A DNA stretch of 64,000 bases from positions 261,618-325,617 of the forward strand of contig CAVVFV010000010.1 in NCBI GenBank assembly GCA_963747695.1, given 5' to 3'. Each line of letters opens with the position of its first letter. Position 1 is the first letter of the stretch. Made by a program: the position numbers and the translations under genes. The notes below the pieces were generated by a model. The model searched no databases. It saw nothing but the letters and a program-made list of their open reading frames with translations, and had not been told where the DNA came from. The stretch comes from Candidatus Falkowbacteria bacterium (lineage in GTDB: Bacteria > Patescibacteriota > Patescibacteriia > Patescibacteriales > WJLG01). This document shows, one piece after another, positions 4,552 to 61,043 of the stretch.

Positions 4552-5199
4552 TTAAACGGCTTTGATGCCGTTGGCTAAGATTGCTAGGCCGTCTTCATTG
4601 CCGAACGGCCTTTCCGGATGGTCCATTACTCCCATGATGTTTCCCTTGTCGTTGCAAAGGGCGGCGATCGTGCCGCCATTCGGAGAAAACCCATCATAGG
4701 TCATGACCACGTTTTTCTGGCCTTCGCCGACGACCTTACCGCCGCCGTGTGCCGAATAAAATTTGAGAACCATGCCTTCCAGATCTCTGGTCCAGAGGCA
4801 ATTCGATCTCTCGACTTTGTGCAAAACCGGATGGCTGCAGAACGTTCCGCTGTCATTGGTAACGAGCGACAGACCGGAGCCGAATATTTTGGCCCGCATG
4901 CCGATCTGGAAACCGTTACAGATGAATATTCCCGGGATACCCGAGGCCAGAAATTCCGACACGAGATCTTTTACCATACTGGCGGCGATAATCCCGTGAG
5001 AGATGTAATCTCCCCCGGAAAAACCGCCCGGCCACCAGACCAGATCGCAATCGGTTACCCGGACTTTTCCGGTTATCAGATCATTCACCATGACGAGTTT
5101 GGGGATGGCGCCCAGATAACGGCAGGCGGCCATCGATTCCATCTCGCAATTAGTGCCCGGCCAATACCAGATGGCGACTTTTTTCTTGTTACGCGACAT
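4552..5199 (-). CDS. purQ: Phosphoribosylformylglycinamidine synthase, glutaminase subunit
   Basis: Class I amidotransferase with a CNGFQ nucleophile elbow and HPER motif. Overlaps purL by 11 nt. Confidence 0.85.
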   Translation of the reverse strand: MSRNKKKVAIWYWPGTNCEMESMAACRYLGAIPKLVMVNDLITGKVRVTDCDLVWWPGGFSGGDYISHGIIAASMVKDLVSEFLASGIPGIFICNGFQIGMRAKIFGSGLSLVTNDSGTFCSHPVLHKVERSNCLWTRDLEGMVLKFYSAHGGGKVVGEGQKNVVMTYDGFSPNGGTIAALCNDKGNIMGVMDHPERPFGNEDGLAILANGIKAV

Positions 5200-8014: not shown

Positions 8015-8701
8015 TTATTTTGCGTCAGTCTTTTGCTCATCGAGAATTTTCATCGCGGCGATATTCACCGCAGTCGGCAGGATTGCCCATTCGTAAGGCA
8101 GGACGTGCTGCTGCAGCCGTTTGGCCGCCTCAGTGATATCGATGGCGCCATTGAGCCGATCAAGAATTATCCGCTGGGGAATTTTCACAAAGGCGCGCAG
8201 CAGCGGTTGGCCGCAATCATAATCAAGCGTGGCCTCATGAACAGTAGGATACGTAAAAAAATCATCTCCCGGCTTTTTCTTTCCCCGGTTGATCAAATCG
8301 ATCACGTTTTCCAAAACCCGCTCGTGGACCTTCAACCCGTACATTTTGTTGCCGCCGAAATCATGCGGATCGGCCGGATGGATGTTCCACATCGCTACTC
8401 CGGGAATCGGATAAATCTTCACGATGCAGCCGAGCAAGAAAAGCAGTTTGATCTGTTCCTCTTGAACATAGCCGGCCAAAAGCGCGTTAAGTCCGGCAAC
8501 GCCGTTTTCCTGGCGGTCGAATATTTTCGTCGTCACCTTCAGTATTCTAGCCTTATCCAGGCCTCCGGCGACGCGATTAGTGCTGATGAGACTCACCAGC
8601 TCAATATTGGGAATAAACCCCGCGACATACTTTTCCATCACCGCATTGGCATCAGTGCCTGATCCGGAAATGACTAACGCCGTCCTAACCTTGCCTTCCA
8701 T
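8015..8701 (-). CDS. purN: Phosphoribosylglycinamide formyltransferase-like protein
   Basis: N-terminal ISGSGT.ANA and NIHPA.P motifs of the formyltransferase fold. First gene of the pur cluster. Confidence 0.7.
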   Translation of the reverse strand: MEGKVRTALVISGSGTDANAVMEKYVAGFIPNIELVSLISTNRVAGGLDKARILKVTTKIFDRQENGVAGLNALLAGYVQEEQIKLLFLLGCIVKIYPIPGVAMWNIHPADPHDFGGNKMYGLKVHERVLENVIDLINRGKKKPGDDFFTYPTVHEATLDYDCGQPLLRAFVKIPQRIILDRLNGAIDITEAAKRLQQHVLPYEWAILPTAVNIAAMKILDEQKTDAK

Positions 8702-37485: not shown

Positions 37486-38382
37486 CTACGAATTAATAAA
37501 TGGATTTGGTTGATTAAAATCCGGCAAAAATATTTCGCCCGCTTCCGGCTCCTGTGTCCAGCCATTCTCCAGTCCAAGTTCAATTTTTTTCTTTTCCGCC
37601 GCCGCGATTTCTTCGGGCGATATTTGCCGGCTCAATTCCGGAAATTCGGCCGCGCGATTCACCCCGCCTTTTCCGGAAAGGGAGGGGTAAACCGGGAAAT
37701 ACTGGCTCATCAAACTCAAATGGATTTTTTTATCAATAGCGGCGATCTTTTCCAGCGCAGAAAAAGTATTGGGCAAATTATTCGGCAATATCATGTGCCG
37801 AATGATCAAACCTTTTTTGGCCAAGCTATTATCATCAACAGCCAATAAACCAACTTGCCGATACATTTCCCTGATCGCCTTATCCGCCACCTCGGAATAC
37901 TTTGGCGCGTGCGAATATTTCGCCGCCGCGACATCGTCCCCATATTTAAAATCGGGGAGATAAATATCAATCAACCCTGCTAAATCTTTAATCGCCTCGA
38001 CCGATTCATAAGCGTTGGAATTCCAAGCCAGCGGAATTTTTAATCCTTTTTCTTTGGCCAGAACAATCGCCTGCTTTATTTCCCGCCGCCACGGTGTGGG
38101 AGTCACTAAATCAATATTAGCCGCTCCCTGCTTTTGCAGATCCAACATTATTTGTGCCAATTCTTCGACCGAATATTCTTTGCCCAAATTTTCCCAACTG
38201 ATCTGCCAATTCTGGCAAAAAACGCAATGCAAATTACAGCCGGAAAAGAATATCGTCCCCGCTCCGAATTTCTCCCCTCCTTCCGAAGGAGGGGTTTGGG
38301 GGTGGTTTGCCTGTCCGACTAGCGGCGGTTCCTCGCCGAAATGCTTGCCGAACCAAGCAATTTTGATTTTTCTTTCAGCCAT
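37486..38382 (-). CDS. Radical SAM protein (PflX/PflA-like), carrying two palindrome-encoded in-frame inserts
   Basis: GCNLHCVFCQNWQIS CxxxCxxC motif. The inserts PPSEGGEKF and SLSGKGGVNRA coincide with GC-rich palindromes. Confidence 0.75.
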   Translation of the reverse strand: MAERKIKIAWFGKHFGEEPPLVGQANHPQTPPSEGGEKFGAGTIFFSGCNLHCVFCQNWQISWENLGKEYSVEELAQIMLDLQKQGAANIDLVTPTPWRREIKQAIVLAKEKGLKIPLAWNSNAYESVEAIKDLAGLIDIYLPDFKYGDDVAAAKYSHAPKYSEVADKAIREMYRQVGLLAVDDNSLAKKGLIIRHMILPNNLPNTFSALEKIAAIDKKIHLSLMSQYFPVYPSLSGKGGVNRAAEFPELSRQISPEEIAAAEKKKIELGLENGWTQEPEAGEIFLPDFNQPNPFINS

Positions 38383-38429
38383 ACTTAAAGCTTACAACAA
38401 AAGGCGTTCCAATGAAACGCCCTCTGCCC

Positions 38430-38795
38430 TTGTCGGGGTACTGGGATTCGGTCACGGCTCTCGTCGGCTTCCGCCTCCTCGGCCGCGAACCCCGCCTCGC
38501 GATGCGGCTCGCCAAATGCTCGCCACATATCGCTCCGGCATTCAAATCCCATCGCGAGCCAAGCAGTTGGCTCGCTTTACCCCGACAAAAAAACGGCTTA
38601 GGCCGTTTTTCCTTGTCGGGGTACTGGGATTCGGTCACGGCTCTCGTCGGCTTCCGCCTCCTCGGCCGCGAACCCCGCCTCGCGATGCGGCTCGCCAAAT
38701 GCTCGCCACATATCGCTCCGGCATTCAAATCCCATCGCGAGCCAAGCAGTTGGCTCGCTTTACCCCGACAAAAAAACGGCTTAGGCCGTTTTTCC
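38430..38795 (-). repeat. Tandem array (2 x 183 bp, identical) of tRNA-linked GC-rich element, subfamily 1
   Basis: Period 183 bp measured at 38430, 38613 and 38796. Each unit carries tRNA-Pro acceptor strands, a T-loop copy and a terminator-like hairpin. Confidence 0.85.
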
Positions 38796-38798
38796 TTG

Positions 38799-38884
38799 TC
38801 GGGGTACTGGGATTCGAACCCAGAACCTTCCACCTACGTTCCGAGGCGGAACTTCGGTGGACGCAGCACGCACCTTCGTGAAAA
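38799..38884 (-). pseudogene. tRNA-Pro 3' half (anticodon stem 3' strand to acceptor end) with a 38-nt hairpin insertion
   Basis: Minus strand reads GGTGCGTG + TCCACC...GGTGGA hairpin + AGGTT-CTGGG-TTCGAAT-CCCAG-TACCCCG-A. No matching 5' half adjoins it. Confidence 0.7.
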
Positions 38885-38961
38885 TGGTCGGGGTACTGGG
38901 ACTCGAACCCAGAACCTCACGCACCCGAAGCGTGCGCCATAGCCAATTAGGCCATACCCCG
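38885..38961 (-). tRNA. tRNA-Pro(CGG), CCA encoded
   Basis: Acceptor CGGGGTA/TACCCCG, anticodon arm CACGC-TTCGGGT-GCGTG, T arm CTGGG-TTCGAGT-CCCAG, A73, CCA. Confidence 0.9.
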
Positions 38962-39028
38962 ACCATTTTCGCGAATTTAAAAAATAATGTAAGCACCTTT
39001 ACCCGCCGAAGCGATTAGCGAAGGCGGG

Positions 39029-39064
39029 CGAAGCGTGCGCCATAGCCAATTAGGCCATACCCCG
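39029..39064 (-). pseudogene. tRNA-Pro 5' fragment (first 36 nt)
   Basis: 36/36 identical to 38926-38961. It then diverges into the hairpin CCCGCC...GGCGGG. Confidence 0.75.
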
Positions 39065-39188
39065 AAAAAACAATTAAAAATTAAAAATGAAAAGTTAAAA
39101 ATTTAATATATAATTTCAGCCTACAGTATAAACAGTCTGTCGTCAATAAAAATATTTTTAATTTTGCATTTTTAATTTTTAATTGTTT

Positions 39189-39273
39189 TGGTGGGCATGG
39201 AGAGACTCGAACTCTCAAGGATTGCTCCGTACGCACCTGAAGCGTATGCGTCTACCAATTTCGCCACATGCCC
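39189..39273 (-). tRNA. tRNA-Leu(CAG), CCA encoded
   Basis: Acceptor GGGCATG/CATGCCC, anticodon arm TACGC-TTCAGGT-GCGTA, long variable arm, T arm GAGAG-TTCGAGT-CTCTC, A73, CCA. Confidence 0.9.
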
Positions 39274-39382
39274 GAAATAGTATCTCGTATTTAGTATTTG
39301 GTATTTCGTATATAAATTTTCTGTCTGGCTCGTTCTTCTTCAAATAAAATTAAAAATCAAAAAACTGATTTTCGATTTTATG

Positions 39383-39455
39383 AGCGGGAGACGGGGCTTG
39401 AACCCGCTGCCTCAACCTTGGGAAGGTCGCGCTCTACCAGATGAGCTACTCCCGC
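39383..39455 (-). tRNA. tRNA-Gly(CCC)
   Basis: Acceptor GCGGGAG/CTCCCGC, anticodon arm CGACC-TTCCCAA-GGTTG, T loop TTCAAGC, U73. No encoded CCA. Confidence 0.9.
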
Positions 39456-39501
39456 CTCTCATCGTCTTGTTTGCTCGTCCGCCTTGGGCGGAGGAAGCAA
39501 A

Positions 39502-39526
39502 CATTCTACCGTTGAATTACTCCCGC
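39502..39526 (-). pseudogene. tRNA 5' fragment (Gly-like acceptor plus D arm)
   Basis: Minus strand reads GCGGGAGTAATTCAACGGTAGAATG, followed by the palindrome TTTGCT..TCCGCC-CAAG-GCGGA..AGCAAA. No T arm. Confidence 0.6.
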
Positions 39527-39569
39527 CGTCATTCGCCGGAACCTCAGCGAAGGCGAACTTCGCCAAATC

Positions 39570-40253
39570 CTAATTATCAATATGTTTAATTCCAATTTCC
39601 GGAAAAACAACCTCTTCGCCAGTCGAAAGCAGAAAAGCCACGGTTGCCGCAACTTCTTTCGTATCTAAGGCATTATTCATGTCTTTTTTTAAGCCCATCT
39701 TTTCAAACATCTTTGTTTTCATTTTTCCCAAATAGAGACCAGTAACCCTAATATGATATTTTGATAATTCCTCCTGAATCGATTTAGTAAATCCGGTTAT
39801 TGCCCATTTGGAGGCGGTGTAAACGGATCTATCCGCCTTGGCGTAAAGCCCTGCTTGCGAAACGACATTGATGATAAAACCATTCTTTTGTTTTTTCATA
39901 ATCGGCACAACTTTTTGAGTAAGCAAAATTGTTCCTGTCGTGTTAACAGCGATTACTTCTTTAATTTTTTCGGCGTCACTTTGGTCAATGCCTCCCTCAA
40001 TCCAAAGCCCGGCATTATTTATCAAGCAATCAATTCTCTGATATTTTTTCTCAATTGCGCTTACCGCCGATTCAATTTCCTTTTCACTGGAAATATCACA
40101 AACCAAAAAATCGCATCCTAATTCTTTGGCCGTCTGTTTCAACTTGACGCTGTCATGAGCAAGCAAAATAACACTGTAATCGGATGCCAATTTTTGGGCA
40201 ATCTCCCTGCCTAGCCCATCGCTACCTCCGGAAATGACGACTACTTTTTTCAT
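39570..40253 (-). CDS. Short-chain dehydrogenase/reductase (SDR) family oxidoreductase
   Basis: SGGSDGLG cofactor motif, NNAG, and YTASKWA catalytic YxxxK. Confidence 0.85.
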   Translation of the reverse strand: MKKVVVISGGSDGLGREIAQKLASDYSVILLAHDSVKLKQTAKELGCDFLVCDISSEKEIESAVSAIEKKYQRIDCLINNAGLWIEGGIDQSDAEKIKEVIAVNTTGTILLTQKVVPIMKKQKNGFIINVVSQAGLYAKADRSVYTASKWAITGFTKSIQEELSKYHIRVTGLYLGKMKTKMFEKMGLKKDMNNALDTKEVAATVAFLLSTGEEVVFPEIGIKHIDN

Positions 40254-40272
40254 AGATAATAATATTATCTTG

Positions 40273-40343
40273 TGGACCTAGGCGGAGTCGAACCGCCGCC
40301 TCTGCAATGCGAATGCAACGTCATACCGCTAGACTATAGGCCC
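40273..40343 (-). tRNA. tRNA-Ala(CGC)
   Basis: Acceptor GGGCCTA/TAGGTCC with G3:U70, anticodon loop TTCGCAT, T arm GGCGG-TTCGACT-CCGCC, A73. No encoded CCA. Confidence 0.9.
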
Positions 40344-40351
40344 GCAAACTT

Positions 40352-40476
40352 TGTGGACAATACTGGGCTCGGTCACAGCTCTCGCTCGCTTCCGCTCGCT
40401 CGGCCGCGACCCCGCCTCGCCGTCTTGCTCGCCAAATAGCTCGCAAGACATGGCTCCGGCATTCGAGCCCTGCCCC
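40352..40476 (-). repeat. tRNA-linked GC-rich element, subfamily 1 (solo copy belonging to tRNA-Val)
   Basis: Its first 21 nt (TTGTGGACAATACTGGGCTCG) equal the tRNA-Val 3' end at 40511-40531. The core is collinear with the 183-bp units. It ends in GGCATTCGAGCCC, an inverted tRNA-Val T loop. Confidence 0.8.
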
Positions 40477-40513
40477 TAAAATATTTATCTGACGAAGGTC
40501 AGTAAATATTTTG

Positions 40514-40587
40514 TGGACAATACTGGGCTCGAACCAGTGACCTCTGCAATGTGAATGCAGCGCTCTAACCAACTGAGCTAATTGTCC
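40514..40587 (-). tRNA. tRNA-Val(CAC)
   Basis: Acceptor GGACAAT/ATTGTCC, anticodon arm CTGCA-TTCACAT-TGCAG, T arm ACTGG-TTCGAGC-CCAGT, A73. Confidence 0.9.
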
Positions 40588-40607
40588 GAAACGCCAGAAA
40601 ATTAGCG

Positions 40608-40670
40608 TGTCGGGGTACTGGCCCCGCCAGCCGGCGGGGTCTCCGCTTCGCTCCGAGAATCTCACCACTC
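40608..40670 (-). repeat. Degenerate element remnant ending in a tRNA-Pro-type 3' end
   Basis: TGTCGGGGTACTGG (as in the 38430 array) is followed by the GC-rich hairpin CCCCGCC-AGCC-GGCGGGG. Confidence 0.5.
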
Positions 40671-40675
40671 ACTTG

Positions 40676-40746
40676 TCGGGCTGCGCGGAATCGAACCGCG
40701 GCTACATGCACCCCATGCACGCGTACTACCATTATACGACAGCCCG
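40676..40746 (-). tRNA. tRNA-Pro(GGG)
   Basis: Acceptor CGGGCTG/CAGCCCG, anticodon arm CGTGC-ATGGGGT-GCATG, T arm CGCGG-TTCGATT-CCGCG, A73. Confidence 0.85.
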
Positions 40747-40760
40747 CTATTAAGGCGCGC

Positions 40761-40806
40761 CTGTCCCGCCTTCACGGCGGGATACTACCGCTATACTATA
40801 CCCCGC
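40761..40806 (-). pseudogene. tRNA 5' fragment (GCGGGGTA acceptor plus D-arm-like) fused to a GC hairpin
   Basis: Minus strand reads GCGGGGTATAGTATAGCGGTAGTA, then TCCCGCC-GTGAA-GGCGGGA. No T arm or 3' acceptor strand adjoins it. Confidence 0.55.
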
Positions 40807-40932
40807 CCCTCACCATTTTTCACAAAAAAATCGAACGCCTCCGTAAACTAAAAACGACCTTTTGAATAGTTTACGAAAAATGGTGAGGGGTCGTTTTTAA
40901 TACTATAAAACTTTACCAAAAAAAGCAAGAAA

Positions 40933-41094
40933 TCAGTCTCTTGACTGGAAAAAATCGCAATGGCCGTTGGGCGGGACTTCGCATTTGGCCTCCGAGCAGG
41001 CTCCGGTTTCCGGATCAAAACCGGTGCAACGGGAACATTCATTGTCGGGATTGGACCAGTCGGCGACAAAATTGGCTTCGATTTCGTGAGACAT
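40933..41094 (-). CDS. Small cysteine-rich protein (53 aa), HiPIP-like C-x2-C...C...C pattern
   Basis: Hand-translated as MSHEIEANFVADWSNPDNECSRCTGFDPETGACSEAKCEVPPNGHCDFFQSRD. Below the 60-aa ORF-track cutoff. The competing 73-aa ORF in another frame looks non-protein-like. Confidence 0.45.
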   Translation of the reverse strand: MSHEIEANFVADWSNPDNECSRCTGFDPETGACSEAKCEVPPNGHCDFFQSRD

Positions 41095-41125
41095 ACTTAT
41101 TATCAGATTAATTTTTAATACTGTA

Positions 41126-42154
41126 TTATTGCGCGGTCGAGGTTGCCTCCGGCGTTAAAATTTTGAAACTCTGGGCCATGCCTTCCAGAACCAGATTGAT
41201 CTTTAAGCGATCAAACTGCTTGATCCCCTGTTCGGGAGGGTAATTCAAAATATCGTTGGAATGGATGATCGACTCGACGGCATAGCATTGGCCATTGTAA
41301 ACAGTCCGGTAACTGGTGACATCGTAATAATTTCCAACGCCGGCGTCGGTGAAAATTATTTTGGTGAAATTGCGGTTGCCGATTATCACCTTGGTGGTGG
41401 TGGCAAAATTGCCAAAGTCCGAGATCAGGCAATTCTTGACCGCGCCGGGATCGGCGCTTGTCCCCACCGAAAATTTGGCTTCGCCGAAATTAGTTCCCGG
41501 CATAAATGAGCGGGGAATATTCACGACCGCCAGCAATAGACCAGTGCTGGAGGAATTATAACTCCAGTCTTGGGAAAAACCGATTTCTCCGCCGGAGAGA
41601 ACGAATTGGCTGGGATGGGAAAAAGAGAAAGTATTTTCCTCGTCCGTATATGTATTGATATCTCCGGAAGATGTCTGGTTGCCGGCCACGCAATTGGTAT
41701 AGGTAGTAATATCTTTTTGCGTCAAGAAAGCGTTATCGCCCTTGCTTACCAGAACCGTCGTCCCCGATTCATAGCGGATCCCCGAACCGGACCTAACTTG
41801 CGGCAAGGTCGTCGTACTGCCGTCTTTAAAGATCAGACTGACCGAACTCGAACCGTAATTAGCGCGCAGCACGCCCTCCTGACAAAAATATTTGATGATA
41901 TTAGAACTGGTGGCCGCCGTGCAATCCTCTTCCCAAGGCCGCAGGCATTTCTGCTTGACTTCGCACCAAGAATATCCGGCTGAACCGATACACCCGTGCG
42001 CGTCACGGTCATTGCCGACTAATGATCCGGCTGGAGTAGGATTACTCATCTTTTCCAGCCAGGGGAATTTTTGCCGGTTAAGATACAGATATCCGCCGCC
42101 GACAACCAAGACAATAATAATGATCAAAACAAAGGTTAAAAATTTATCTTTCAT
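41126..42154 (-). CDS. Membrane-anchored exported protein with MliC-like (lysozyme-inhibitor fold) domain
   Basis: N-terminal TM anchor. The central segment LRANYGSSSVSLIFKDGSTTTLPQVRSGSGIRYESG..VLVSKGDNAFL matches the MliC pattern. Confidence 0.55.
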   Translation of the reverse strand: MKDKFLTFVLIIIIVLVVGGGYLYLNRQKFPWLEKMSNPTPAGSLVGNDRDAHGCIGSAGYSWCEVKQKCLRPWEEDCTAATSSNIIKYFCQEGVLRANYGSSSVSLIFKDGSTTTLPQVRSGSGIRYESGTTVLVSKGDNAFLTQKDITTYTNCVAGNQTSSGDINTYTDEENTFSFSHPSQFVLSGGEIGFSQDWSYNSSSTGLLLAVVNIPRSFMPGTNFGEAKFSVGTSADPGAVKNCLISDFGNFATTTKVIIGNRNFTKIIFTDAGVGNYYDVTSYRTVYNGQCYAVESIIHSNDILNYPPEQGIKQFDRLKINLVLEGMAQSFKILTPEATSTAQ

Positions 42155-42214
42155 AGGTTTAATGATGTGTTTAATTACGCCTCAATTATAGCAGCTTTTA
42201 GATTTAAAAAACAA

Positions 42215-42814
42215 CCTGACGCAGGTCGGACTGATTCGGTCACGGCTCTCACTCGCTTCCGCCTCCTCGGCCTCGACCCCGGCTCGCGGTGCTCGGCGCC
42301 GGAATGCGCCTCGCACAACGCTGCGCCTTTCGAATCCTCTCATTTTCCATTCTAACTTAAAAGACCTGACGCAGGTCGGACTGATTCGGTCACGGCTCTC
42401 GTCGGCTTCCGCCTCCTCGGCCTCGACCCCGGCTCGCGGTGCTCGGCGCCGGAATGCGCCTCGCACAACGCTGCGCCTTTCGAATCCTCTCATTTTCCAT
42501 TCTAACTTAAAAGACCTGACGCAGGTCGGACTGATTCGGTCACGGCTCTCGTCGGCTTCCGCCTCCTCGGCCTCGACCCCGGCTCGCGGTGCTCGGCGCC
42601 GGAATGCGCCTCGCACAACGCTGCGCCTTTCGAATCCTCTCATTTTCCATTCTAACTTAAAAGACCTGACGCAGGTCGGACTGATTCGGTCACGGCTCTC
42701 GTCGGCTTCCGCCTCCTCGGCCTCGACCCCGGCTCGCGGTGCTCGGCGCCGGAATGCGCCTCGCACAACGCTGCGCCTTTCGAATCCTCTCATTTTCCAT
42801 TCTAACTTAAAAGA
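42215..42814 (-). repeat. Tandem array (4 x 150 bp) of tRNA-linked GC-rich element, subfamily 1 (tRNA-Ser copy)
   Basis: Period 150 bp measured at 42215, 42365, 42515, 42665 and 42815. Copies 2-4 are identical. A 40-nt run is identical to the 183-bp units. Each unit carries an inverted 15-nt copy of the tRNA-Ser T-loop/acceptor region. Confidence 0.85.
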
Positions 42815-42843
42815 CCTGACGCAGGTCAGGTCTTTTAAGTTAG

Positions 42844-42930
42844 CGGAGATGAGAGGATTCGAACCTCTGATGCCCTTACGGACATACCGCATTTCGAGTG
42901 CGGCCCATTCGACCACTCTGGCACATCTCC
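42844..42930 (-). tRNA. tRNA-Ser(CGA)
   Basis: Acceptor GGAGATG/CATCTCC, anticodon arm CCGCA-CTCGAAA-TGCGG, long variable arm, T arm AGAGG-TTCGAAT-CCTCT, G73. Confidence 0.9.
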
Positions 42931-43124
42931 ATTTTTTAATTACAAATTATGAATTATTAATTATAAATTTTATGGATATTAGTTAATCTACTATTTAAAC
43001 TACAAAGAGTCAATATTGCTAATTTGCCAAAATTTTTTAATACCCGCTTTTGACAAAATTCGACGCGGGTGATAATTTAAAGCGTTGATCTTTGCTTGAC
43101 TGAACATTTTCCTGGAGGTAAAAA

Positions 43125-43448
43125 ATGTATTATTACAGTAAGAAACATCACAAAAAAATAAATGTCAGGGTAAGGGAAGGTTTACGGATGATCGTTGAGG
43201 AAGCGACCGGTAATTTTTCATTCGCTTATCCGAAAAATTCGCCGCTCGCGGAGGCAACACTGTTCTGGGAAACAGCCAGCAATACGGCAGTCATGAAACC
43301 GGAACAATTGAGCAACGGCAAAATCAATTATTTAACGGCGGCCAATCTCTGCGCAAATCTGTCTGGCTTAACGGCTTTCCCGGAAGAATTCAAAGAGAAA
43401 GACAAATATCGTGAATTCGTTTTTGCCAAAACGTCCAATAATCTTTGA
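43125..43448 (+). CDS. Hypothetical protein
   Basis: 107-aa ORF preceded by GGAGG. No recognised family. Confidence 0.4.
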   Translation: MYYYSKKHHKKINVRVREGLRMIVEEATGNFSFAYPKNSPLAEATLFWETASNTAVMKPEQLSNGKINYLTAANLCANLSGLTAFPEEFKEKDKYREFVFAKTSNNL

Positions 43449-43467
43449 AGCCAACCAATCATAACGC

Positions 43468-44964
43468 TCATTGAACCTTCCGCCCGCCAATCGGAAGGTT
43501 TTTATTTTTTTCAGAAATTAAAGCCAGCATGGCGACCAGAATCCAAAACAATGCAGCTAAATCATTTTTAAAATACGGCACATCGACCAAGCCATGGACA
43601 ACAATCACAATCATTGCCGCTAATAAACCAAGATGTAAATATTTATATTCATTTCCCTTAATTGAAAATTTAAAGTTGACAATTGAAAATTTTATTATTA
43701 TCCATGCAAAAATAAATAATCCCGCCAAACCCAGCTCGCTCCAAAAATTCAAAATGATGTCGTGCGGATATAAATATATTTCCACCGGCTGCCAAGTGCG
43801 GGCGCGAACGGCGGCGCTGTTAATCGTATCCTGATGAAAATTAGGATCCGTACCATCATCATAAAAAAAACCTTTCTGGTGATACGGCGCCACGGCAGTT
43901 TGATAATTCCCCAAACCCACGCCTAAAATTTTTGCGTTGCCGTTTAACATCATCAAAGTTTCCTTCCATTGCAAGCGGCGGATCTGACCGGAAAGATCAT
44001 GGGCCGTAATTTTTCTGATGAGCGGTTTCTCGATCGGTGGATAAAAATAGATTCCCGCGCTGGCCACCAGGACAATGATGATAGCCGCGATCCGCGCTTT
44101 TTTATTGGCGTATAAACAAAAAATAAAGGCGGCGGCGGCCAGACCGATCAGGGCGCCGTCGGATTTGGCAAAATAAATCGCGGCTAATGACAAAAGGATG
44201 ATAAACCCCAAAAAGGCTTTGGATAAACCGATCGCAGAAATTCTTTCTTTTGGTAGCGGATAACAGATTTTCTCCTCAAACGGCGTGCATTCCTTTTTGG
44301 CCGGCAGTAATAAGAAGCTGAACAGGACCGGAATGATGGGGCCAAGATACAGGCCGACCGCGTTGGGATAGCCGAAAAACGAGACCGCCCGGCGCGTGGC
44401 TGCCGCGGCCCAGAGCGGATTATCAATCCCGATCCCGGTGAACTTTTGAAAAATCGCGTAGGCGGAAACAAGCAAGGCGCCAACCGCCAAGCTCAAGCCG
44501 ATTTTATTCAAACCATTCTTGCCGGGAAGAATATTGAGGATCAAGACATACAACAAGGCTGGTTCAAAAAAATAGGCCTTCCACAAACCCAAAGAAGCCG
44601 CAGAGAAATGAGGCAGACTGGCCGCGAAAAGTGAAACGATCAACAATAAAATGATTTCAATCCCAAAAGGATATTTTCGCCGGCCTTCCGCGCTGCCGCC
44701 CTTTCGCCACGGGCTGTTCATTAAAAAATCTTTAACTGAATATTTACCGTGCAAAAAATCCCAAAACTTTGTTTTGAAAACAAACCAACAAAAAAAAGCG
44801 ATCAGGATCATCGCCTCCAAAAGCGTCAGCGGGACTAATATTTTGAATCTAACCAAATACAAAGGCAGGCCGGCGATGACGAGCATCACGGCCCAGTCTG
44901 ACCTTTTGAGCGACAAGACAAAAAAGGCGAGTAAAAATATGGCCAAAAATATTGCGTAACTCAT
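43468..44964 (-). CDS. O-antigen ligase/polymerase-like (Wzy_C family) polytopic membrane protein
   Basis: About 12 TM helices with a central periplasmic loop, typical of O-antigen ligase-like proteins. Confidence 0.5.
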   Translation of the reverse strand: MSYAIFLAIFLLAFFVLSLKRSDWAVMLVIAGLPLYLVRFKILVPLTLLEAMILIAFFCWFVFKTKFWDFLHGKYSVKDFLMNSPWRKGGSAEGRRKYPFGIEIILLLIVSLFAASLPHFSAASLGLWKAYFFEPALLYVLILNILPGKNGLNKIGLSLAVGALLVSAYAIFQKFTGIGIDNPLWAAAATRRAVSFFGYPNAVGLYLGPIIPVLFSFLLLPAKKECTPFEEKICYPLPKERISAIGLSKAFLGFIILLSLAAIYFAKSDGALIGLAAAAFIFCLYANKKARIAAIIIVLVASAGIYFYPPIEKPLIRKITAHDLSGQIRRLQWKETLMMLNGNAKILGVGLGNYQTAVAPYHQKGFFYDDGTDPNFHQDTINSAAVRARTWQPVEIYLYPHDIILNFWSELGLAGLFIFAWIIIKFSIVNFKFSIKGNEYKYLHLGLLAAMIVIVVHGLVDVPYFKNDLAALFWILVAMLALISEKNKNLPIGGRKVQ

Positions 44965-58349: not shown

Positions 58350-58736
58350 ATGAACAAAATCGTCAAGTATTTAATGATCGTGGCCATGGTTTTGGCCATC
58401 GCCGTACCGGTCCTTTCCATGCCAGCTTTGGCAACAACTCTGGATCTGGGCACCAGCTATGTCAACAATCAGGTAACCGGTCTGGGCACCAATGATCCGC
58501 GCACCATCGCGGGTATCGTCATCCGCATCGCCTTGGGTTTCCTCGGCGTTCTGGCGGTAATCATCATCCTGATCGGCGGTTTCAAATGGATGACCGCGGC
58601 CGGCAACGAAGAGCAGATCGAAGATGCCAAGAAAGTTTTGATGGCCGGAATCATCGGCTTGGTCATTATCCTGGCCTCCTGGGGTATCGCCACCTTTGTC
58701 CTCACCAGCCTACTCACGGCGACGACAGGCTCTTAG
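58350..58736 (+). CDS. TrbC/VirB2-like (T4SS_pilin-type) small membrane protein, paralogue 1
   Basis: Signal peptide, variable region, then the conserved LG.LGV....I.GG..WM.A.G.E..I..AK......IGL.I.... Confidence 0.7.
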   Translation: MNKIVKYLMIVAMVLAIAVPVLSMPALATTLDLGTSYVNNQVTGLGTNDPRTIAGIVIRIALGFLGVLAVIIILIGGFKWMTAAGNEEQIEDAKKVLMAGIIGLVIILASWGIATFVLTSLLTATTGS

Positions 58737-58852
58737 TAATTTTTCCAAAACTAGTTTTAGGAAAATTGGTGGGTCTTATTCCTAAAGTAAGACTCACTGC
58801 CTTGGACAGAAATATTTTGTGTTCAGAGCAGTAAAAAATTCATCATAAAAAT

Positions 58853-59314
58853 ATGTCGGTAAAAAAAATCAGCTTGTTTTTTCTGGCCCCGCTTCTTCTT
58901 TTAGGAATTTTTGTGTTATTTTCTACTGCCCAAGCTTCCGCTCCTGACCACAGATTAATTGCTCAAACCACCCAAGGAGACGTTAACAATGCCGCAGATA
59001 AACTCAATTCTCTCCAGGATACCACCCAGGGAAATTATGGCCTGGATGAAGCCTCGCAAAACACACCCTTGATTGATAACACGCCGCAGCAGATCGTCGG
59101 CACGGTAATCGGCGCCGCCCTTTCTTTATTGGGCGTGATTTTCTTTTTACTGATCATCTACGGCGGCCTGCGTTGGATGCTCGCCCAAGGCAATGAGCAG
59201 GAAGTGGAAAAAGCCAAAGAGGTGCTGATCGCCGCGGTAATCGGCCTTATTATCGTCCTCTCCGCCTACGCCATCACCACCTTCATCGGCACGCAATTGA
59301 CCGGCGGCAAATAA
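58853..59314 (+). CDS. TrbC/VirB2-like small membrane protein, paralogue 2
   Basis: Same C-terminal two-helix module (IYGGLRWMLAQGNEQEVEKAKEVL). Confidence 0.7.
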   Translation: MSVKKISLFFLAPLLLLGIFVLFSTAQASAPDHRLIAQTTQGDVNNAADKLNSLQDTTQGNYGLDEASQNTPLIDNTPQQIVGTVIGAALSLLGVIFFLLIIYGGLRWMLAQGNEQEVEKAKEVLIAAVIGLIIVLSAYAITTFIGTQLTGGK

Positions 59315-59372
59315 AATCTCCGCTCTTAAGATTATTACACCAAATATTTTAACCTAATCATCAAGCCCCCCG

Positions 59373-59738
59373 ATGTTTATTCTTTCCCCCCTTGTTTCGC
59401 TCCACAGCAAACTCATCGCCTACAGTTTTGTGGAAAATAGCGGCGTGAATGAAACCGCCAACCAGGCCGGTTTCTCCGGCCCGTCCGGCCAAGCCGGCGT
59501 CACCTCCATCACCGGCACGGTTATCAGTGTGATTTTGTCGTTGCTCGGCGTGATTTTTTTAGCCCTAACCATCTACGGCGGAATAATGTGGATGACAGCG
59601 GAAGGCAAAGAAGAGCGGATCGAGAAAGCCAAGAATATCATTATCAACAGCGTAATCGGACTGGTTATCGTGATGGCCGCCTATGCCATCAGCTACTTTG
59701 TCATTAATGCTTTAACCCAAGCGCCGCCGACAGTATGA
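59373..59738 (+). CDS. TrbC/VirB2-like small membrane protein, paralogue 3
   Basis: Same module (IYGGIMWMTAEGKEERIEKAKNII). The N-terminus is atypical and the start is uncertain. Confidence 0.6.
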   Translation: MFILSPLVSLHSKLIAYSFVENSGVNETANQAGFSGPSGQAGVTSITGTVISVILSLLGVIFLALTIYGGIMWMTAEGKEERIEKAKNIIINSVIGLVIVMAAYAISYFVINALTQAPPTV

Positions 59739-60130
59739 AAAAATTTTTTGGCCTACAAATTATTCCTATCCTCTTTTACTTATTGGCTGTTTCTTTTTTT
59801 CCTGTTCAAGCAGCCGGTAATTTAAGTAATGCTTTTGATACGAACACCCTTAGCGCCGCCTCCGGAAACACCGCCAATGCCGGTACCGATGTCTATCAAA
59901 TTATCGGAACAGTGATCCAAGCTTTGCTCGGCCTGCTGGGAGTCATCTTTCTCTCGCTCATAGTTTACGGCGGGGTCAGTTGGATGCTGGCCGAAGGAGA
60001 AGAAACTAAGATTGAAAAAGCGCAAGGAATCATCCGTTCGGCGATTATCGGCTTGGTCGTGGTGGTTGCCGCCTACGCCATCAGCTTCTTCGTAATCGGC
60101 GCGCTAAATAAAGCCGCCTTGGGTAAATAG
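59735..60130 (+). CDS. TrbC/VirB2-like small membrane protein, paralogue 4
   Basis: Same module (VYGGVSWMLAEGEETKIEKAQGII). 4-nt overlap with paralogue 3. Confidence 0.7.
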   Translation: MKKFFGLQIIPILFYLLAVSFFPVQAAGNLSNAFDTNTLSAASGNTANAGTDVYQIIGTVIQALLGLLGVIFLSLIVYGGVSWMLAEGEETKIEKAQGIIRSAIIGLVVVVAAYAISFFVIGALNKAALGK

Positions 60131-60159
60131 CGATTATTCCTTCAAAATATTTCAATTGT

Positions 60160-60552
60160 ATGAAAAAAATAATCAAAAGAATTTCTGTCTTGGCGAGTCT
60201 GCTTGTTTTTTTAGTGCTCCCTTATTTTGTTTTCGCTGATTCTCCGATCAACGCTTTGCAGAACGTGGGCAATGCCGCCGGTTACAGCAAAACGACCAAC
60301 GAAACGACCATTTCGGTCATCGCCGGCACAGTTGTCGGCGCCGTCTTAGGCTTGCTGGGCGTCATATTTATCATTCTAATAATCTATTCTGGAATAATGT
60401 GGATGACGGCCTCAGGCGATGAAGCTAAAGTTGAGAAAGCCCAGAAAATCTTACGAAATGCTATTATCGGATTAATCATTACGGTAAGTGCCACAGCAAT
60501 TTATCTTGTGGTTGCGCAAATTTTCTCCGTAACAATCGGCAACCCTTCTTGA
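60160..60552 (+). CDS. TrbC/VirB2-like small membrane protein, paralogue 5
   Basis: Same module (IYSGIMWMTASGDEAKVEKAQKIL). Confidence 0.7.
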   Translation: MKKIIKRISVLASLLVFLVLPYFVFADSPINALQNVGNAAGYSKTTNETTISVIAGTVVGAVLGLLGVIFIILIIYSGIMWMTASGDEAKVEKAQKILRNAIIGLIITVSATAIYLVVAQIFSVTIGNPS

Positions 60553-60632
60553 TTACGAATGCCCGGCGCCTAACAAAAGAGATGCCCGAGGAGGAAGAAA
60601 TATCACTTATTGATTAATATATCATTAAAAAT

Positions 60633-61043
60633 ATGAAGAATGCTTTAAAGGTAAAGATCTTTGCTTTCATAATACTGCTTTCTGCCCTTTTTACCTCAAG
60701 CTTTGCCAATGCCCAAGTCCCCGGCAGACAAGATCAAAATGCTGCCTTTGCCAAGGCCGCCAACCTAAACACTGGCAGTTCCGTTGGATCGATCATTGGA
60801 GTCCTCATTACTGCCGCGCTTGGCCTTTTGGCCGTAATTTTTATCATCTTATTGATCATCGCCGGTTTCCAGTGGATGACCGCCGAAGGCGATGAGGAAA
60901 AAATCAATAAAGCCAAGCAGACCATCAGCCGCGCCATCATCGGCCTGGCGATCGTCATCGCCGCCTATTCAATCACCTACTTCGTCTTTAATGCCTTAAG
61001 CAGCGCGTCGGTCGGCGGAACGCATACGGTCGGCGGCAGCTGA
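60633..61043 (+). CDS. TrbC/VirB2-like small membrane protein, paralogue 6
   Basis: Same module (IIAGFQWMTAEGDEEKINKAKQTI). Confidence 0.7.
   Translation: MKNALKVKIFAFIILLSALFTSSFANAQVPGRQDQNAAFAKAANLNTGSSVGSIIGVLITAALGLLAVIFIILLIIAGFQWMTAEGDEEKINKAKQTISRAIIGLAIVIAAYSITYFVFNALSSASVGGTHTVGGS

Follow-up and report, generated by a model that had tools for sequence, protein, structure and literature searches.

Tandem 150-bp units behind tRNA-Ser(CGA) belong to a structured, non-coding family adjoining tRNA genes in Patescibacteria

The tRNA-Ser locus and its array

The window, meaning the whole 64,000-nt stretch of DNA that was analysed, contains a minus-strand tRNA-Ser(CGA) gene followed by a tandem array at 42214-42827, for which TRF reported a period of 150 bp, 4.1 copies as assembled and 99% matches. 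The G+C content of the array is 62%, compared with 47% for the window. The features of the locus are listed below in the direction of tRNA transcription; X' denotes an inverted copy of the tRNA 3' end, and arms A and B are the two GC-rich arms of the unit.

43013-42985, minus strand: promoter-like site of tRNA-Ser(CGA)
42843..42930, minus strand: tRNA-Ser(CGA) (ARAGORN; Rfam tRNA, 58.5 bits)
42802..42843, minus strand: tRNA-proximal perfect palindrome CTAACTTAAAAGACCTGAC-CTGC-GTCAGGTCTTTTAAGTTAG, 19+19 nt, exact (inverted-repeat listing)
42673..42793, minus strand: element core of unit 4, nearest the tRNA, with inverted box, arm A, arm B and truncated direct copy (cmsearch with R1, 124.4 bits)
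42523..42643, minus strand: element core of unit 3 (cmsearch with R1, 124.4 bits; RNA fold)
42373..42493, minus strand: element core of unit 2 (cmsearch with R1, 124.4 bits)
42223..42343, minus strand: element core of unit 1, distal (cmsearch with R1, 120.8 bits; 4-base difference; alignments)
42779-42793, also 42629-42643, 42479-42493 and 42329-42343, minus strand: X', inverted copy of tRNA-Ser positions 54-68, minus-strand reading AUGAGAGGAUUCGAA
42683-42722, also 42533-42572 and 42383-42422, minus strand: 40-nt tract (CGAAUC and the 3' two-thirds of arm B), also found unchanged in the Pro units
42663-42677, also 42813-42827, 42513-42527 and 42363-42377, minus strand: inter-unit terminator-like hairpin GACCUGCGUCAGGUC followed by UUUU
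42212..42228, minus strand: distal terminator CGACCUGCGUCAGGUUG followed by UUUUUU

Direct comparison of the units beginning at 42215, 42365, 42515 and 42665 showed that units 2-4 are identical and that unit 1 differs from them only at unit positions 37-40 (ACTC versus GTCG), a change of four adjacent bases. The period, the unit starts and the pattern of identity are those given in a preliminary description made from the sequence alone, which also assigned copy 1 a divergent leader. That difference exists, with AACCTGACGCAGGTC in place of GACCTGACGCAGGTC, but it sits just outside the unit rather than within it. A 15-nt box, TTCGAATCCTCTCAT, is present at 42329, 42479, 42629 and 42779. Its reverse complement occurs once, within tRNA-Ser at 42849-42863, which confirms the earlier identification of the box as an inverted copy of the tRNA-Ser T loop and acceptor. 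The 3' end of tRNA-Ser from the T loop onward, designated X_a, is the first, direct copy of a triplicated segment. A 40-nt tract described as common to these units and the 183-bp units behind tRNA-Pro was likewise recovered, with exactly five occurrences (38445, 38628, 42383, 42533 and 42683) where chance predicts none; it is missing from Ser unit 1.

The hairpin that had been described as closing each unit, GACCTGCGTCAGGTC followed by TTTT, obtained a terminator-like score on the minus strand in every Ser unit, and the extended hairpin noted beside the tRNA proved to be the exact 19+19-nt palindrome. This palindrome is the terminator of tRNA-Ser and the centre of a quasi-palindrome of ~85 nt that links the first inverted box with the 3' end of the tRNA; the DNA fold of 42772-42868 has a free energy of -36.7 kcal/mol (z = -11.7). 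The inter-unit hairpin is a short repeat shared with the distal native terminator, and it sets the 150-bp period. The distal terminator is orthologous to the native tRNA-Ser terminator of relatives (contigs L036, 4914-4950, and L159, 3735-3765). A terminator precedes every Ser unit, and no internal promoter was detected in the units.

An assembly artefact or a repetitive protein-coding gene is a scarcely credible account of the array. The contigs of an independent short-read assembly (sample ERR11748453) end exactly at the repeats, so the sequence is indeed repeated, although the breaks do not give the number of repeats. The presence of two unit variants means that at least two Ser copies are real, and second copies also occur in contigs L046 and L160. 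One frame of the array is open, forming a 244-aa ORF (42182-42916, minus strand), and public protein sets include a spurious ORF that covers the Pro array (P0121). The 244-aa ORF, however, crosses the tRNA gene; 5.8 billion proteins include no homologue of it apart from the window's own sequence, and substitutions are of the kind that compensates in RNA stems rather than of synonymous type. Protein coding was also rejected from the open frames of a six-frame translation, of which the three least repetitive matched only the window's own spurious ORF.

Family membership and the covarying fold

Members of the same family were found at two further tRNA loci in the window, of which the Val locus was missed in the first sequence reading.

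38885..38961, minus strand: tRNA-Pro(CGG), within a 21-nt inverted repeat (ARAGORN; repeat listing)
38428..38816, minus strand: Pro array of two identical 183-bp units, cores 38435-38555 and 38618-38738 (TRF; cmsearch, 122.4 bits)
40513..40587, minus strand: tRNA-Val(CAC), neighbour of the Val element (ARAGORN; Rfam)
40350..40512, minus strand: single Val element, between tRNA-Val and tRNA-Ala (cmsearch, 126.2 bits; fold z = -4.85)

CGAATCCCAGTACCCCGACAAGG is present as a direct repeat whose three copies border the Pro units (38428-38450, 38611-38633 and 38794-38816 on the plus strand), and the array folds with -100.9 kcal/mol (z = -7.9). tRNA-Pro(CGG) has half-pseudogenes on both sides, a 5' half at 39029-39065 and a 3' half at 38797-38884, and the units are joined to the 3' end of the latter; the same arrangement of tRNA-Pro and half-pseudogenes is seen in L159 in the absence of the units. 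Within the Val element, the terminator palindrome occupies 40477-40512 and the core 40356-40476, and the tRNA-Val 3' end is repeated directly at 40350-40371. The genes downstream of the window elements encode an MliC-like lipoprotein (Ser), a radical SAM protein, and tRNA-Ala followed by an SDR protein (Val). Apart from the element, these same tRNA loci contain tRNA halves, cassettes with homing endonucleases and inserts of GC-rich hairpins.

Covariance model R1 recovered all seven copies at the three window loci (four Ser, two Pro and one Val; 99-126 bits), every one behind a tRNA, together with members in eight other Patescibacteria contigs (L002, L003, L005, L008, L016, L020/L029, L046 and L160). 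The Ser and Pro arrays are thereby placed in one family, as had been proposed, and the combination of locus-specific ends with a shared core extends across the family loci. The elements are ~125-180 bp long, non-coding, GC-rich and located directly behind genes for Ser(cga), Asp, Met, Gly(gcc), Val(cac) and Pro(cgg) tRNAs, with a remnant after Val(tac). Members come from Saccharibacteria and Patescibacteria MAGs, and the lineage of the window itself is Parcubacteria-like. Most members are single-copy and the tandem arrangement is atypical, tandem or partial second copies being found also in L046 and L160. The family is rare: a strict pattern gave three true matches in 185,579 species genomes and about four contigs in a metagenome scan.

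No Rfam 15 family was matched in an E-value scan of 37500-43500, which returned only seven tRNAs and sub-threshold noise, and a permissive Rfam scan of one Pro unit (38600-38800) gave only terminator-like fragments of at most 16 bits. Neither ARAGORN nor Rfam RF00005 called a tRNA cloverleaf in the units, in which only the acceptor and T-stem strands are imitated. No Intron_gpI match was obtained at E-values up to 5-10, and the upstream tRNA is complete without splicing. A full-text literature search found no description of the element, the nearest paper being one on group I introns in Patescibacteria tRNA genes.

In tRNA-sense order, a complete locus consists of the tRNA with X_a (from T-loop position 56 on), an AT-rich spacer with a palindromic terminator, X', the core, and a second direct copy, X_b. 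X' is the inverted tRNA 3' end back to T54, and X_b usually extends a few bases beyond the mature end. The fold is a three-way junction in which X' pairs with X_b as the closing helix, and the core of ~100 nt forms the two GC-rich arms. In the family alignment 91.5% of cells are paired, with compensatory change in 21 of 34 pairs, a level reached by 0 of 500 shuffles; slid controls are ~35% paired. Covariation was also computed with a 9-sequence version of the alignment. The fold is specific to the tRNA-sense strand by virtue of one invariant G-U pair and of alternation between GC and GU at several positions; fold z-scores are -4 to -8 for the minus strand and -1.3 to -2.3 for the plus strand. 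Between the window and L160, substitutions in one orthologous pair fall in 2/68 paired and 12/53 unpaired columns; in a second pair the counts are 9/68 and 10/52, and six of seven changed base pairs are kept.

Arm B carries a GGAA tetraloop with tandem G-A motifs. Its GGC-GGAA-GCC / GAC / GA...GA arrangement fits, by eye, a putative kink-turn, or alternatively may form two tandem G-A pairs. In an informal comparison by eye with consensus sequences, neither the hammerhead, nor group II domain 5, nor SRP helix 8 fitted the junction or arm B. Arm B is near-identical between Saccharibacteria and Parcubacteria members and has been swapped for unrelated hairpins in L020 and L046; arm A covaries. In the alignments, arm B of Ser unit 1 is a mismatched hybrid of a type-1 5' strand and a type-2 3' strand (GCGAGUGAG). 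Unit 1 keeps the older arm B 3' strand, and elsewhere the Ser unit is most similar to the L016 element, which is linked to tRNA-Asp. The 40-nt identity between Ser and Pro units is accordingly read, from these sequence comparisons, as a probable gene-conversion patch and not as a boundary of the conserved core.

The closing helix reproduces the acceptor and T-stem of the neighbouring tRNA. The direct 3' copy equals the end of the adjacent tRNA over 18-25 nt at six loci, namely window Val (22 nt), window Pro (23 nt), L003 Ser (25 nt, 7 nt of trailer included), L016 Asp (19 nt), L020 Gly (19 nt) and L160 Val, and because direct copies run into the trailer the copying is placed at the DNA level. 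Those in L016 and at the L160 Pro locus end in CCA. The inverted 5' strand is clearly cognate in L020 (19 nt), the window Ser units (17), L003 (15) and L016 (14) and weakly so at the Val elements; for Val and Pro elements the criterion used to score cognate against non-cognate 5' strands is lenient. A match of the end boxes to the adjacent tRNA elsewhere, which the preliminary description had named as a check that could overturn it, was thus found for the direct copy at six loci, whereas the inverted strand is weak at Val. Pro-type closing helices include the full acceptor 5' strand, which is GUCGGGGUA in window Pro and GGAGGCG with a G-U pair in L003; in L020 the helix is perfect over 17 bp. 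The complementarity of X' to the tRNA extends from position 54 to about 68-72, without the discriminator and CCA. X'/X_b is the sole inverted repeat of the element, differing with each tRNA and measuring 6-19 bp; the direct repeats are also variable (18-25 bp). The tRNA end, terminator and X' together form one quasi-palindrome (z -6.7 to -11.7).

These relationships revise the proposed role of the 15-nt box. It had been suggested to act in trans by antisense pairing or targeting; across the family it is primarily the 5' strand of the closing helix, whose 3' strand, the direct tRNA-end copy of the element, is its partner in cis. Together with the upstream tRNA end it also forms a long quasi-palindrome, in which it is the outer arm. 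In the window Ser units the direct copy is shortened to CGAATC, so that the box appears unpaired there, which is a derived state.

Two further ideas were considered and set aside. If X' had arisen as a simple hairpin-capped inverted duplication of the downstream flank, the stretches that precede X' and follow X_b should be reverse complements, and inspection of window Val and L016 showed that they are not. A restriction-site explanation was dropped because TTCGAA is missing from some target T loops.

Presence, decay and candidate origin

Orthologous loci in relatives include empty sites. In the syntenic region of L036, the terminator of tRNA-Pro(cgg) and then the radical-SAM gene come immediately after the tRNA, and in L035 tRNA-Val and tRNA-Ala are separated by 2 nt. 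The element is also absent from L159 and L161, and L160 has one copy at each of all three loci; contigs of three more relatives did not include the Ser locus. Decayed copies were observed as well: the L020/L029 remnant retains half of arm B and the direct repeat only, the second L046 copy is degenerate, and the L160 Ser copy has lost its closing helix. Some spacers are similar to native terminators: the spacer terminator of the window Pro units to that of tRNA-Pro in L035 and L160, and the hairpin in the L016 (Asp) spacer to that of tRNA-Ser in L036 and L159. With the near-identical arm B across lineages, this may point to a horizontal component.

The reading we favour, with a confidence that falls somewhat short of even, is that the Ser units are tandem amplified copies of a small, selfish, non-autonomous insertion element linked to tRNA T-loops, the amplification having occurred by unequal recombination. 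The element would enter or recombine at the universally conserved T loop, at a junction of the form ...UUCGAA^AG(C/G)C...GUGAC^CGA... (carets mark the joins). It would bring a replacement tRNA 3' end and terminator, leaving the tRNA functional, and the original 3' end would be displaced downstream. A precedent is provided by tRNA-integrating islands, which regenerate the gene and leave a displaced fragment (PMC4383910). The conserved fold may be the substrate of a trans-acting factor, either as RNA or as folded single-stranded DNA; a terminator before every Ser unit and the lack of an internal promoter imply that an RNA intermediate would be scarce. Arrays would be secondary products of unequal recombination or slippage between short direct repeats flanking a unit, the amplifying repeat being the GACCTGCGTCAGGT hairpin in the Ser array and the 23-nt tRNA-end copy in the Pro array. 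The unit borders do coincide with the repeated hairpin (Ser) and the direct repeat (Pro). Gene conversion between loci may afterwards have homogenised part of arm B.

Several observations weigh against insertion. The usual terminal inverted repeats are absent, and a change to a new tRNA species requires X_a, X' and X_b to change together, for which the insertion reading offers no demonstrated mechanism. The patchy distribution could also reflect one old insertion followed by precise losses via the direct repeats, the reduced number of stem substitutions between orthologues also fits an RNA useful to the host, and such rarity is unusual for an active mobile element. A bolder version, which we regard as doubtful, is a new class of mobile element that needs no linked gene and targets the T loop. 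The inverted and direct copies of its folded strand would rebuild a duplex mimic of the target, or act as an RNA or DNA guide to it. With every move the parts specific to one tRNA would be copied afresh from the new target, one conceivable route being copy-back synthesis that starts at a staggered break in the T loop. Such renewal of the ends would explain one core at no fewer than seven tRNA species.

The strongest competitor of the insertion element, though unlikely, is a host-used, tRNA-like small RNA. Transcription starting at the tRNA promoter would read through into the element, and RNase P together with 3' processing would release the RNA because its closing helix resembles the acceptor/T-stem minihelix. 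The conserved junction and arms would bind a protein or serve as decoy or regulator, and in the Ser array, where the direct copy is lost, the four unpaired 15-nt boxes could be antisense to tRNA-Ser(CGA). Strong covariation, G-U pairs, the GGAA tetraloop with tandem G-A, and stems less substituted than unpaired columns between orthologues are all expected of it, as are a closing helix that mimics acceptor and T-stem (with the full acceptor 5' strand in Pro-type elements) and the CCA that ends some direct copies. Yet the units have no promoter of their own and most copies follow a terminator. Copies decay, shorten and are missing in close relatives, with no replacement elsewhere in the regions fetched, and arm B has been exchanged for unrelated hairpins in L020 and L046. 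The antisense box is paired in cis in most members, and the Val elements show little preference for their cognate tRNA.

The units may instead be a neutral by-product of DNA metabolism, an explanation we consider improbable, in which template switching at the palindromic terminator triplicates the tRNA end in direct, inverted and direct orientation as a quasi-palindrome extension, GC-rich REP-like hairpins of the kind abundant in these genomes gather in the loop, and arrays arise by slippage, with neither function nor a mobility of their own. The long quasi-palindromes are centred exactly on terminator loops, as this would predict. Moreover, unrelated GC-rich inserts at the same loci share the frame of inverted strand, hairpins and direct tRNA end (L036 Ser, 4714-4913; L035 Pro, 8444-8552), the L036 insert having the X' frame of the window Ser units around another core, and GC-rich hairpins occupy the loops of tRNA pseudogenes (L159, 5977-6110; L035, 7580-7640). 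Independent accretion cannot, however, give one core, with its junction and both arms, behind seven tRNA species in distant lineages with compensatory substitutions, and the loops evolve faster than the stems.

It is very improbable that the units are what remained beside the attachment site of a prophage, island or other large integrative element once its body had been deleted. In such elements the tRNA 3' end is classically repeated in direct orientation (PMC4383910), and the L046 contig is listed as viral in IMG/VR. Against this, size (125-180 bp) and content are the same at all loci, no integrase or phage gene is attached, and pattern scans of IMG/VR gave L046 as the single true contig, in which the genes adjacent to the copy are cellular (epimerase, deaminase and GDSL lipase). 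No blastn match was found in 50,697 phage or 72,556 plasmid records, and a phage or plasmid origin was rejected on these grounds. Counting against the insertion element itself, Pfam searches of the 65 ORFs of at least 90 aa in the 64-kb window found no recombinase, integrase, transposase, reverse transcriptase, homing endonuclease, HNH, GIY-YIG or Y1/RAYT domain, and phmmer found no homologue of the GIY-YIG and HNH homing endonucleases of L035.

Patescibacteria have tiny genomes and few classical mobile elements. If the insertion-element reading is true, they carry a gene-less element of ~150 bp that regenerates its tRNA as islands do and imitates the top half of whichever tRNA it adjoins, with a covarying three-way junction. 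It would be a testable entry into the remodelling of tRNA loci in reduced genomes, would add an uncatalogued family of structured nucleic acids, and may point to a principle of targeting by structural mimicry. In practical terms, the arrays break short-read assemblies, and spurious ORFs derived from them are already in public protein sets.

Comparison with known systems

Type III toxin-antitoxin ToxI loci resemble the arrays, since both consist of non-coding units in tandem and have a terminator. A ToxI unit measures 36 nt, and a toxin gene comes after the units, whereas the Ser array is followed by an MliC-like lipoprotein gene and most family members are single copies; no ToxN-type gene follows the repeats at the Ser, Pro or Val loci. 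Group I introns in Patescibacteria tRNA genes are likewise structured RNA insertions at tRNA genes, in the same phylum. They lie in the anticodon loop (35/36 and others) and have a group I catalytic core. The element, in contrast, is positioned behind the tRNA and built on a core of 100 nt, and Rfam showed no group I match to it.

Primer-binding sites of retroviruses and LTR elements are similar in that 13-19 nt are complementary to the 3' part of a specific tRNA. In the element, a partner is present in cis, and complementarity begins with T54 but dwindles before it reaches the discriminator and CCA, which would leave the tRNA 3'-OH unpaired; neither CCA complementarity nor an adjacent RVT domain was found among the window ORFs. 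tRNA-like structures (the tmRNA domain, plant-virus 3' ends and the 3' end of the Neurospora retroplasmid) share the acceptor/T-stem stack, the discriminator and sometimes CCA. The element differs in that a 100-nt two-arm domain replaces the T loop, the D and anticodon parts are not mimicked and each copy imitates another tRNA. The Rfam tRNA and tmRNA models did not match the elements, and no evidence of charging or priming was found.

MITEs, REP/REPIN sequences and cis-mobilisable elements are also small, non-coding, GC-rich, multi-copy, rich in hairpins, situated downstream of genes by terminators, and subject to decay. Unlike MITEs and REPINs, the element is present in very few copies per genome, its ends copy the local tRNA, and it folds as a three-way junction, not a simple hairpin. 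Shared terminal inverted repeats and a target-site duplication of fixed length, which define MITEs, are lacking. Compared with REP/REPIN systems, there are three loci in 64 kb, all at tRNAs, and no Y1_Tnp domain in the window. Integron attC sites, CTX-phage attP and quasi-palindrome template switching are alike in that an inverted and a direct copy rebuild a duplex target in a single strand. The strand-specific fold and the palindromes centred on hairpin loops are further resemblances; the likeness would be one of logic only, and no IntI- or Xer-type sites or enzymes were identified.

A further parallel is with islands and prophages of tyrosine integrases (T-loop class attachment sites; Islander, PMC4383910), which also start in the T loop and supply a new 3' end that keeps the tRNA intact. 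Their displaced 3' end forms a direct repeat of 18-25 bp that may pass the mature end, and tandem accretion is possible. The element differs in its length of 125-180 bp, in having no integrase or other gene (no Phage_integrase or recombinase domain occurs in the 65 window ORFs), in its extra inverted copy, in a covarying fold throughout, and in its occurrence at seven tRNA species. What it shares with islands, a regenerated tRNA followed by a displaced 3' direct repeat, was observed at window Val, window Pro, L003, L016, L020 and L160 Val.

Repeat units within a cluster of seven tRNA genes

Tandem Repeats Finder and direct comparison of the units bore out the preliminary description of four 150-bp tandem units behind tRNA-Ser(CGA). 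The features concerned are listed here, with Ser and Pro copy numbers as assembled, the short-read contigs of ERR11748453 ending at the repeats.

38428-38816: Pro array, period 183 bp, 2.1 copies, 100% matches (Tandem Repeats Finder)
40350-40512: Val unit, a single element at a third locus, between tRNA-Val(cac) and tRNA-Ala(cgc) (repeat search)
42214-42827: Ser array, period 150 bp, 4.1 copies, 99% matches (Tandem Repeats Finder)
42843-42930, minus strand: tRNA-Ser(cga) (ARAGORN)

Ser units 2-4 were mutually identical, as had been described, and the reported deviation of unit 1 was located to four consecutive bases. The proposed 15-nt inverted tRNA-Ser copy, TTCGAATCCTCTCAT, was found once per Ser unit, and its reverse complement occurred once, within the tRNA-Ser gene. 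Identity between the Ser and Pro units over 40 nt, also claimed earlier, held for both Pro units and Ser units 2-4, against a chance expectation of none. The Val unit shares 67-71% identity with the other units across about 103 nt. G+C content is 62% in the units compared to 47% in the window.

According to ARAGORN, tRNA-Ser(cga) ends a series of seven minus-strand tRNA genes (38885-42930): Pro-CGG, Leu-CAG, Gly-CCC, Ala-CGC, Val-CAC, Pro-GGG and Ser-CGA. All except Pro-GGG have C as the first anticodon base and so read G-ending codons. The order of the cluster is kept in five other contigs (L035, L036, L159, L160 and L161). Long open reading frames cross both arrays (42182-42916, minus strand, and 38412-38942, plus strand), one of them also crossing the tRNA-Ser gene. 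The 176-aa frame across the Pro array corresponds to a predicted protein in public collections (P0121) and is almost certainly spurious. Elsewhere in the window, 58350-61043 contains six successive small genes, each with a T4SS_pilin family (PF18895) match.

Anatomy and predicted fold of the units

Read on the minus strand, Val and Pro units terminate in an exact copy of the adjoining tRNA's 3' end, running from T-loop position 56 through the discriminator to a few trailer bases (22 nt in Val, 23 nt in Pro), and the complementary strand is carried at the core's 5' side. For the Pro units, this 5' strand has two parts, acceptor-type GUCGGGGUA and T-stem-type UGGGAUUUG, with a CUGC-loop hairpin between them; the predicted fold resembles an acceptor/T-stem stack carrying the 100-nt core in place of the T loop. 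For the Ser units, the 15-nt box forms the 5' strand, and the 3' copy is shortened to CGAAUC, followed by AGUCC and a hairpin.

The tRNA 3' end, trailer, terminator and inverted strand form one extended quasi-palindrome with the terminator loop at its centre. The example at 42772-42868 folds as DNA with -36.7 kcal/mol (z = -11.7), and equivalents were identified at the window Val and Pro loci, at the Pro locus of L160 and in L016, a metagenome contig. By this layout the tRNA 3' end is present in triplicate, direct (in the tRNA), inverted and direct, with the core between the second and third copies. The inverted copy invariably extends to T54 (...UCGAA|AG...), and C56 is invariably the first base of the second direct copy (...GUGAC|CGA...). 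The junctions therefore fall within the universal T-loop sequence, offset by 2 nt. Template switching combined with hairpin accretion could have left such inverted copies and hairpins as a neutral by-product, a live if improbable alternative.

Minus-strand fold z-scores were -4.85 for Val, -4.25 and -7.87 for Pro and -1.5 for Ser, compared to plus-strand values of -1.3 to -2.3; predicted folding favours the tRNA-sense (minus) strand. A common architecture was predicted for all three types, in which a closing helix opens into a three-way junction from which two GC-rich arms extend; arm B bears a GGAA tetraloop and tandem G-A motifs. By inspection, arm B may contain a kink-turn, and a comparison by eye with ribozyme consensus sequences showed no fit.

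Across 15 distinct sequences, in an alignment whose fitting to the covariance model favours the structure, 91.5% of pair cells were standard and two-sided changes were observed in 21 of 34 pairs. These values were reached by 0 of 500 shuffles, and pairing fell to about 35% when partners were slid. Independent MAFFT/RNAalifold analysis of nine sequences gave eight compensatory pairs in arm A. Because an invariant G-U and several GC/GU alternations in the fold would be A-C mismatches on the opposite strand, the fold is assigned to the tRNA-sense strand, as RNA or single-stranded DNA. That strand would be the lagging-strand template, since GC skew is negative almost throughout the window and its genes, tRNAs included, are nearly all on the minus strand.

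Between the window and L160 Val orthologues, substitutions were rarer in paired (2 of 68) than in unpaired (12 of 53) columns. The same held for the Pro orthologues (9 of 68 paired against 10 of 52 unpaired columns), in which pairing was retained at six of the seven pairs that had changed. Covariation also links the closing helix to the tRNA T loop (CGAAUCCCA with UGGGAUUUG in the window versus CGAGUCCCG with CGGGGCUCG in L160).

Distribution, proposed array growth and a selfish reading

An arm B pattern scanned against 185,579 species genomes identified three Patescibacteria MAGs (two Candidatus Saccharibacteria), the other two matches being due to chance. A metagenome scan yielded contigs L008, L016 and L020/L029 besides many chance matches in GC-rich coding DNA. 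Both scans used strict patterns, so the rarity of the family, of which this is a small sample (15 distinct sequences), may be overstated. Members on other contigs include the following.

L003: behind tRNA-Ser(cga), 25-nt direct repeat including 7 nt of trailer
L005: behind tRNA-Met
L016: behind tRNA-Asp, 19-nt repeat
L020: behind tRNA-Gly(gcc), closing helix perfect over 17 bp and spanning T loop, T stem and entire acceptor strand

A remnant on L020/L029 behind tRNA-Val(tac) keeps half of arm B and the repeat, and nothing more. A covariance model built from nine sequences detected exactly seven copies in the window and zero elsewhere within it, and two, the second degenerate, on the IMG/VR contig L046. 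Clear members score 99-126 bits and divergent ones 40-70; these scores are a safer guide than the E-values, which are rough, coming from a shortened calibration. Rfam gave no family match, even at permissive thresholds. L046 (IMGVR_UViG_3300033463_005745) is the sole 'viral' contig bearing the element; the adjoining genes are of cellular type (epimerase, cytidine deaminase, GDSL lipase, hexapeptide transferase), and its viral assignment is doubtful for the element-bearing part.

The MliC-like gene adjoining the Ser array has homologues in Parcubacteria-type MAGs, and the seven-tRNA cluster was present in all syntenic contigs examined. In L036, tRNA-Pro(cgg) is followed directly by its terminator and then a radical-SAM gene; in L035 only 2 nt separate tRNA-Val and tRNA-Ala. 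Both are empty sites. L159 and L161 contained zero family members, and L160 carried single copies at the Val locus, Pro locus and Ser-locus position. Occupancy of the same sites by the elements thus differs between related genomes.

The conserved fold could be that of a tRNA-like functional RNA used by the host, a live though rather unlikely alternative. A selfish mobile insertion element, rather than a housekeeping RNA, is argued for by the regenerated tRNA and its displaced 3' fragment, by the variable occupancy of sites, by decayed copies, and by an arm B that is near-identical in distant lineages even as arm A covaries. Spacer terminators resembling native tRNA terminators of other lineages point the same way: the window Pro spacer terminator resembles the native tRNA-Pro terminator of L035 and L160, and that of L016 resembles the tRNA-Ser terminator of L036 and L159. 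The selfish reading is put forward as a serious possibility, though one still somewhat short of probable.

The Ser repeating unit is delimited by GACCTGCGTCAGGT, present in the tRNA-adjacent palindrome and in the distal terminator, itself an orthologue of the native tRNA-Ser terminator in L036 and L159; the Pro unit has the 23-nt tRNA-end copy at its borders. The observed 150- and 183-bp periods would follow from unequal recombination or slippage between these bounding repeats. At the L160 Ser-locus position a unit is followed by the beginning of a second, which, with the two L046 copies, indicates that tandem growth recurs in the family. Arm B exists in two compensating versions, GAGGAGGC...GCCGACGAG and GAGCGAGC...GCGAG(C/U)GAG. 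In Ser unit 1 a 5' strand of the first version is joined to a 3' strand of the second; units 2-4 are of the first version throughout, with the 40-nt match to the Pro units, and the remainder of the Ser unit is nearest to L016. From these sequences we infer the trace expected of a gene-conversion patch from the Pro locus.

Remodelling of tRNA loci and comparison with known systems

The tRNA genes are clearly remodelling hot spots in this lineage. Other small GC-rich inserts occupy corresponding positions in L036 (4714-4913, behind tRNA-Ser) and L035 (8444-8552, behind tRNA-Pro), and like the element are framed as inverted strand, hairpins and direct tRNA end. The L036 insert has TAGA(T)AATGGAAAA..AGGATTCGAA in common with the window Ser units, but its core is unrelated. 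At L035 3862-4700 a broken tRNA-Ser (5' fragment 3862-3885) contains, in order, a gene for a GIY-YIG protein, a different and complete tRNA-Ser(cga) and a gene for an HNH protein, which together look like a homing-endonuclease cassette with its own replacement tRNA; zero homologues of the two proteins were found in the window.

In the window, tRNA-Pro(CGG) (38885-38961) sits between copies of its own 5' half (39029-39065, stopping in the anticodon loop, with a GC-rich hairpin after it) and 3' half (38797-38884, carrying a variable-region hairpin). Joined, the halves would give a complete tRNA-Pro(CGG), and a 21-nt inverted repeat (38875-38895/38955-38975) flanks the intact gene, as if it were a cassette inserted in the anticodon loop of an older gene. 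The same half/intact/half arrangement occurs in L159. Downstream of tRNA-Pro(GGG), 40600-40674 holds a GC-rich hairpin and then CCAGTACCCCGACA, the 3' end of the other proline tRNA, a remnant conserved in L035 (7462-7530). Short GC-rich palindromes of the TCCGCC..GGCGGA or CCTGCC..GGCAGG type (L159 5977-6110, L035 7580-7640, L160 4405-4425) occupy D-loop, anticodon-loop or inter-stem sites of tRNA pseudogenes and tRNA-end copies, and similar hairpins lie in window intergenic DNA, e.g. 38985-39028 and 39465-39495. Possibly these form a REP-like family of their own that prefers hairpin loops.

The only related topic returned by a literature search was group I introns in the anticodon loops of Patescibacteria tRNAs (PMC13011429), a different phenomenon. 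No recombinase, reverse transcriptase, transposase or homing endonuclease was found in the 64-kb window. Islands integrating in tRNA genes leave a regenerated tRNA and a displaced 3' fragment (PMC4383910); the element is without any gene, and its signature is exactly that of such islands.
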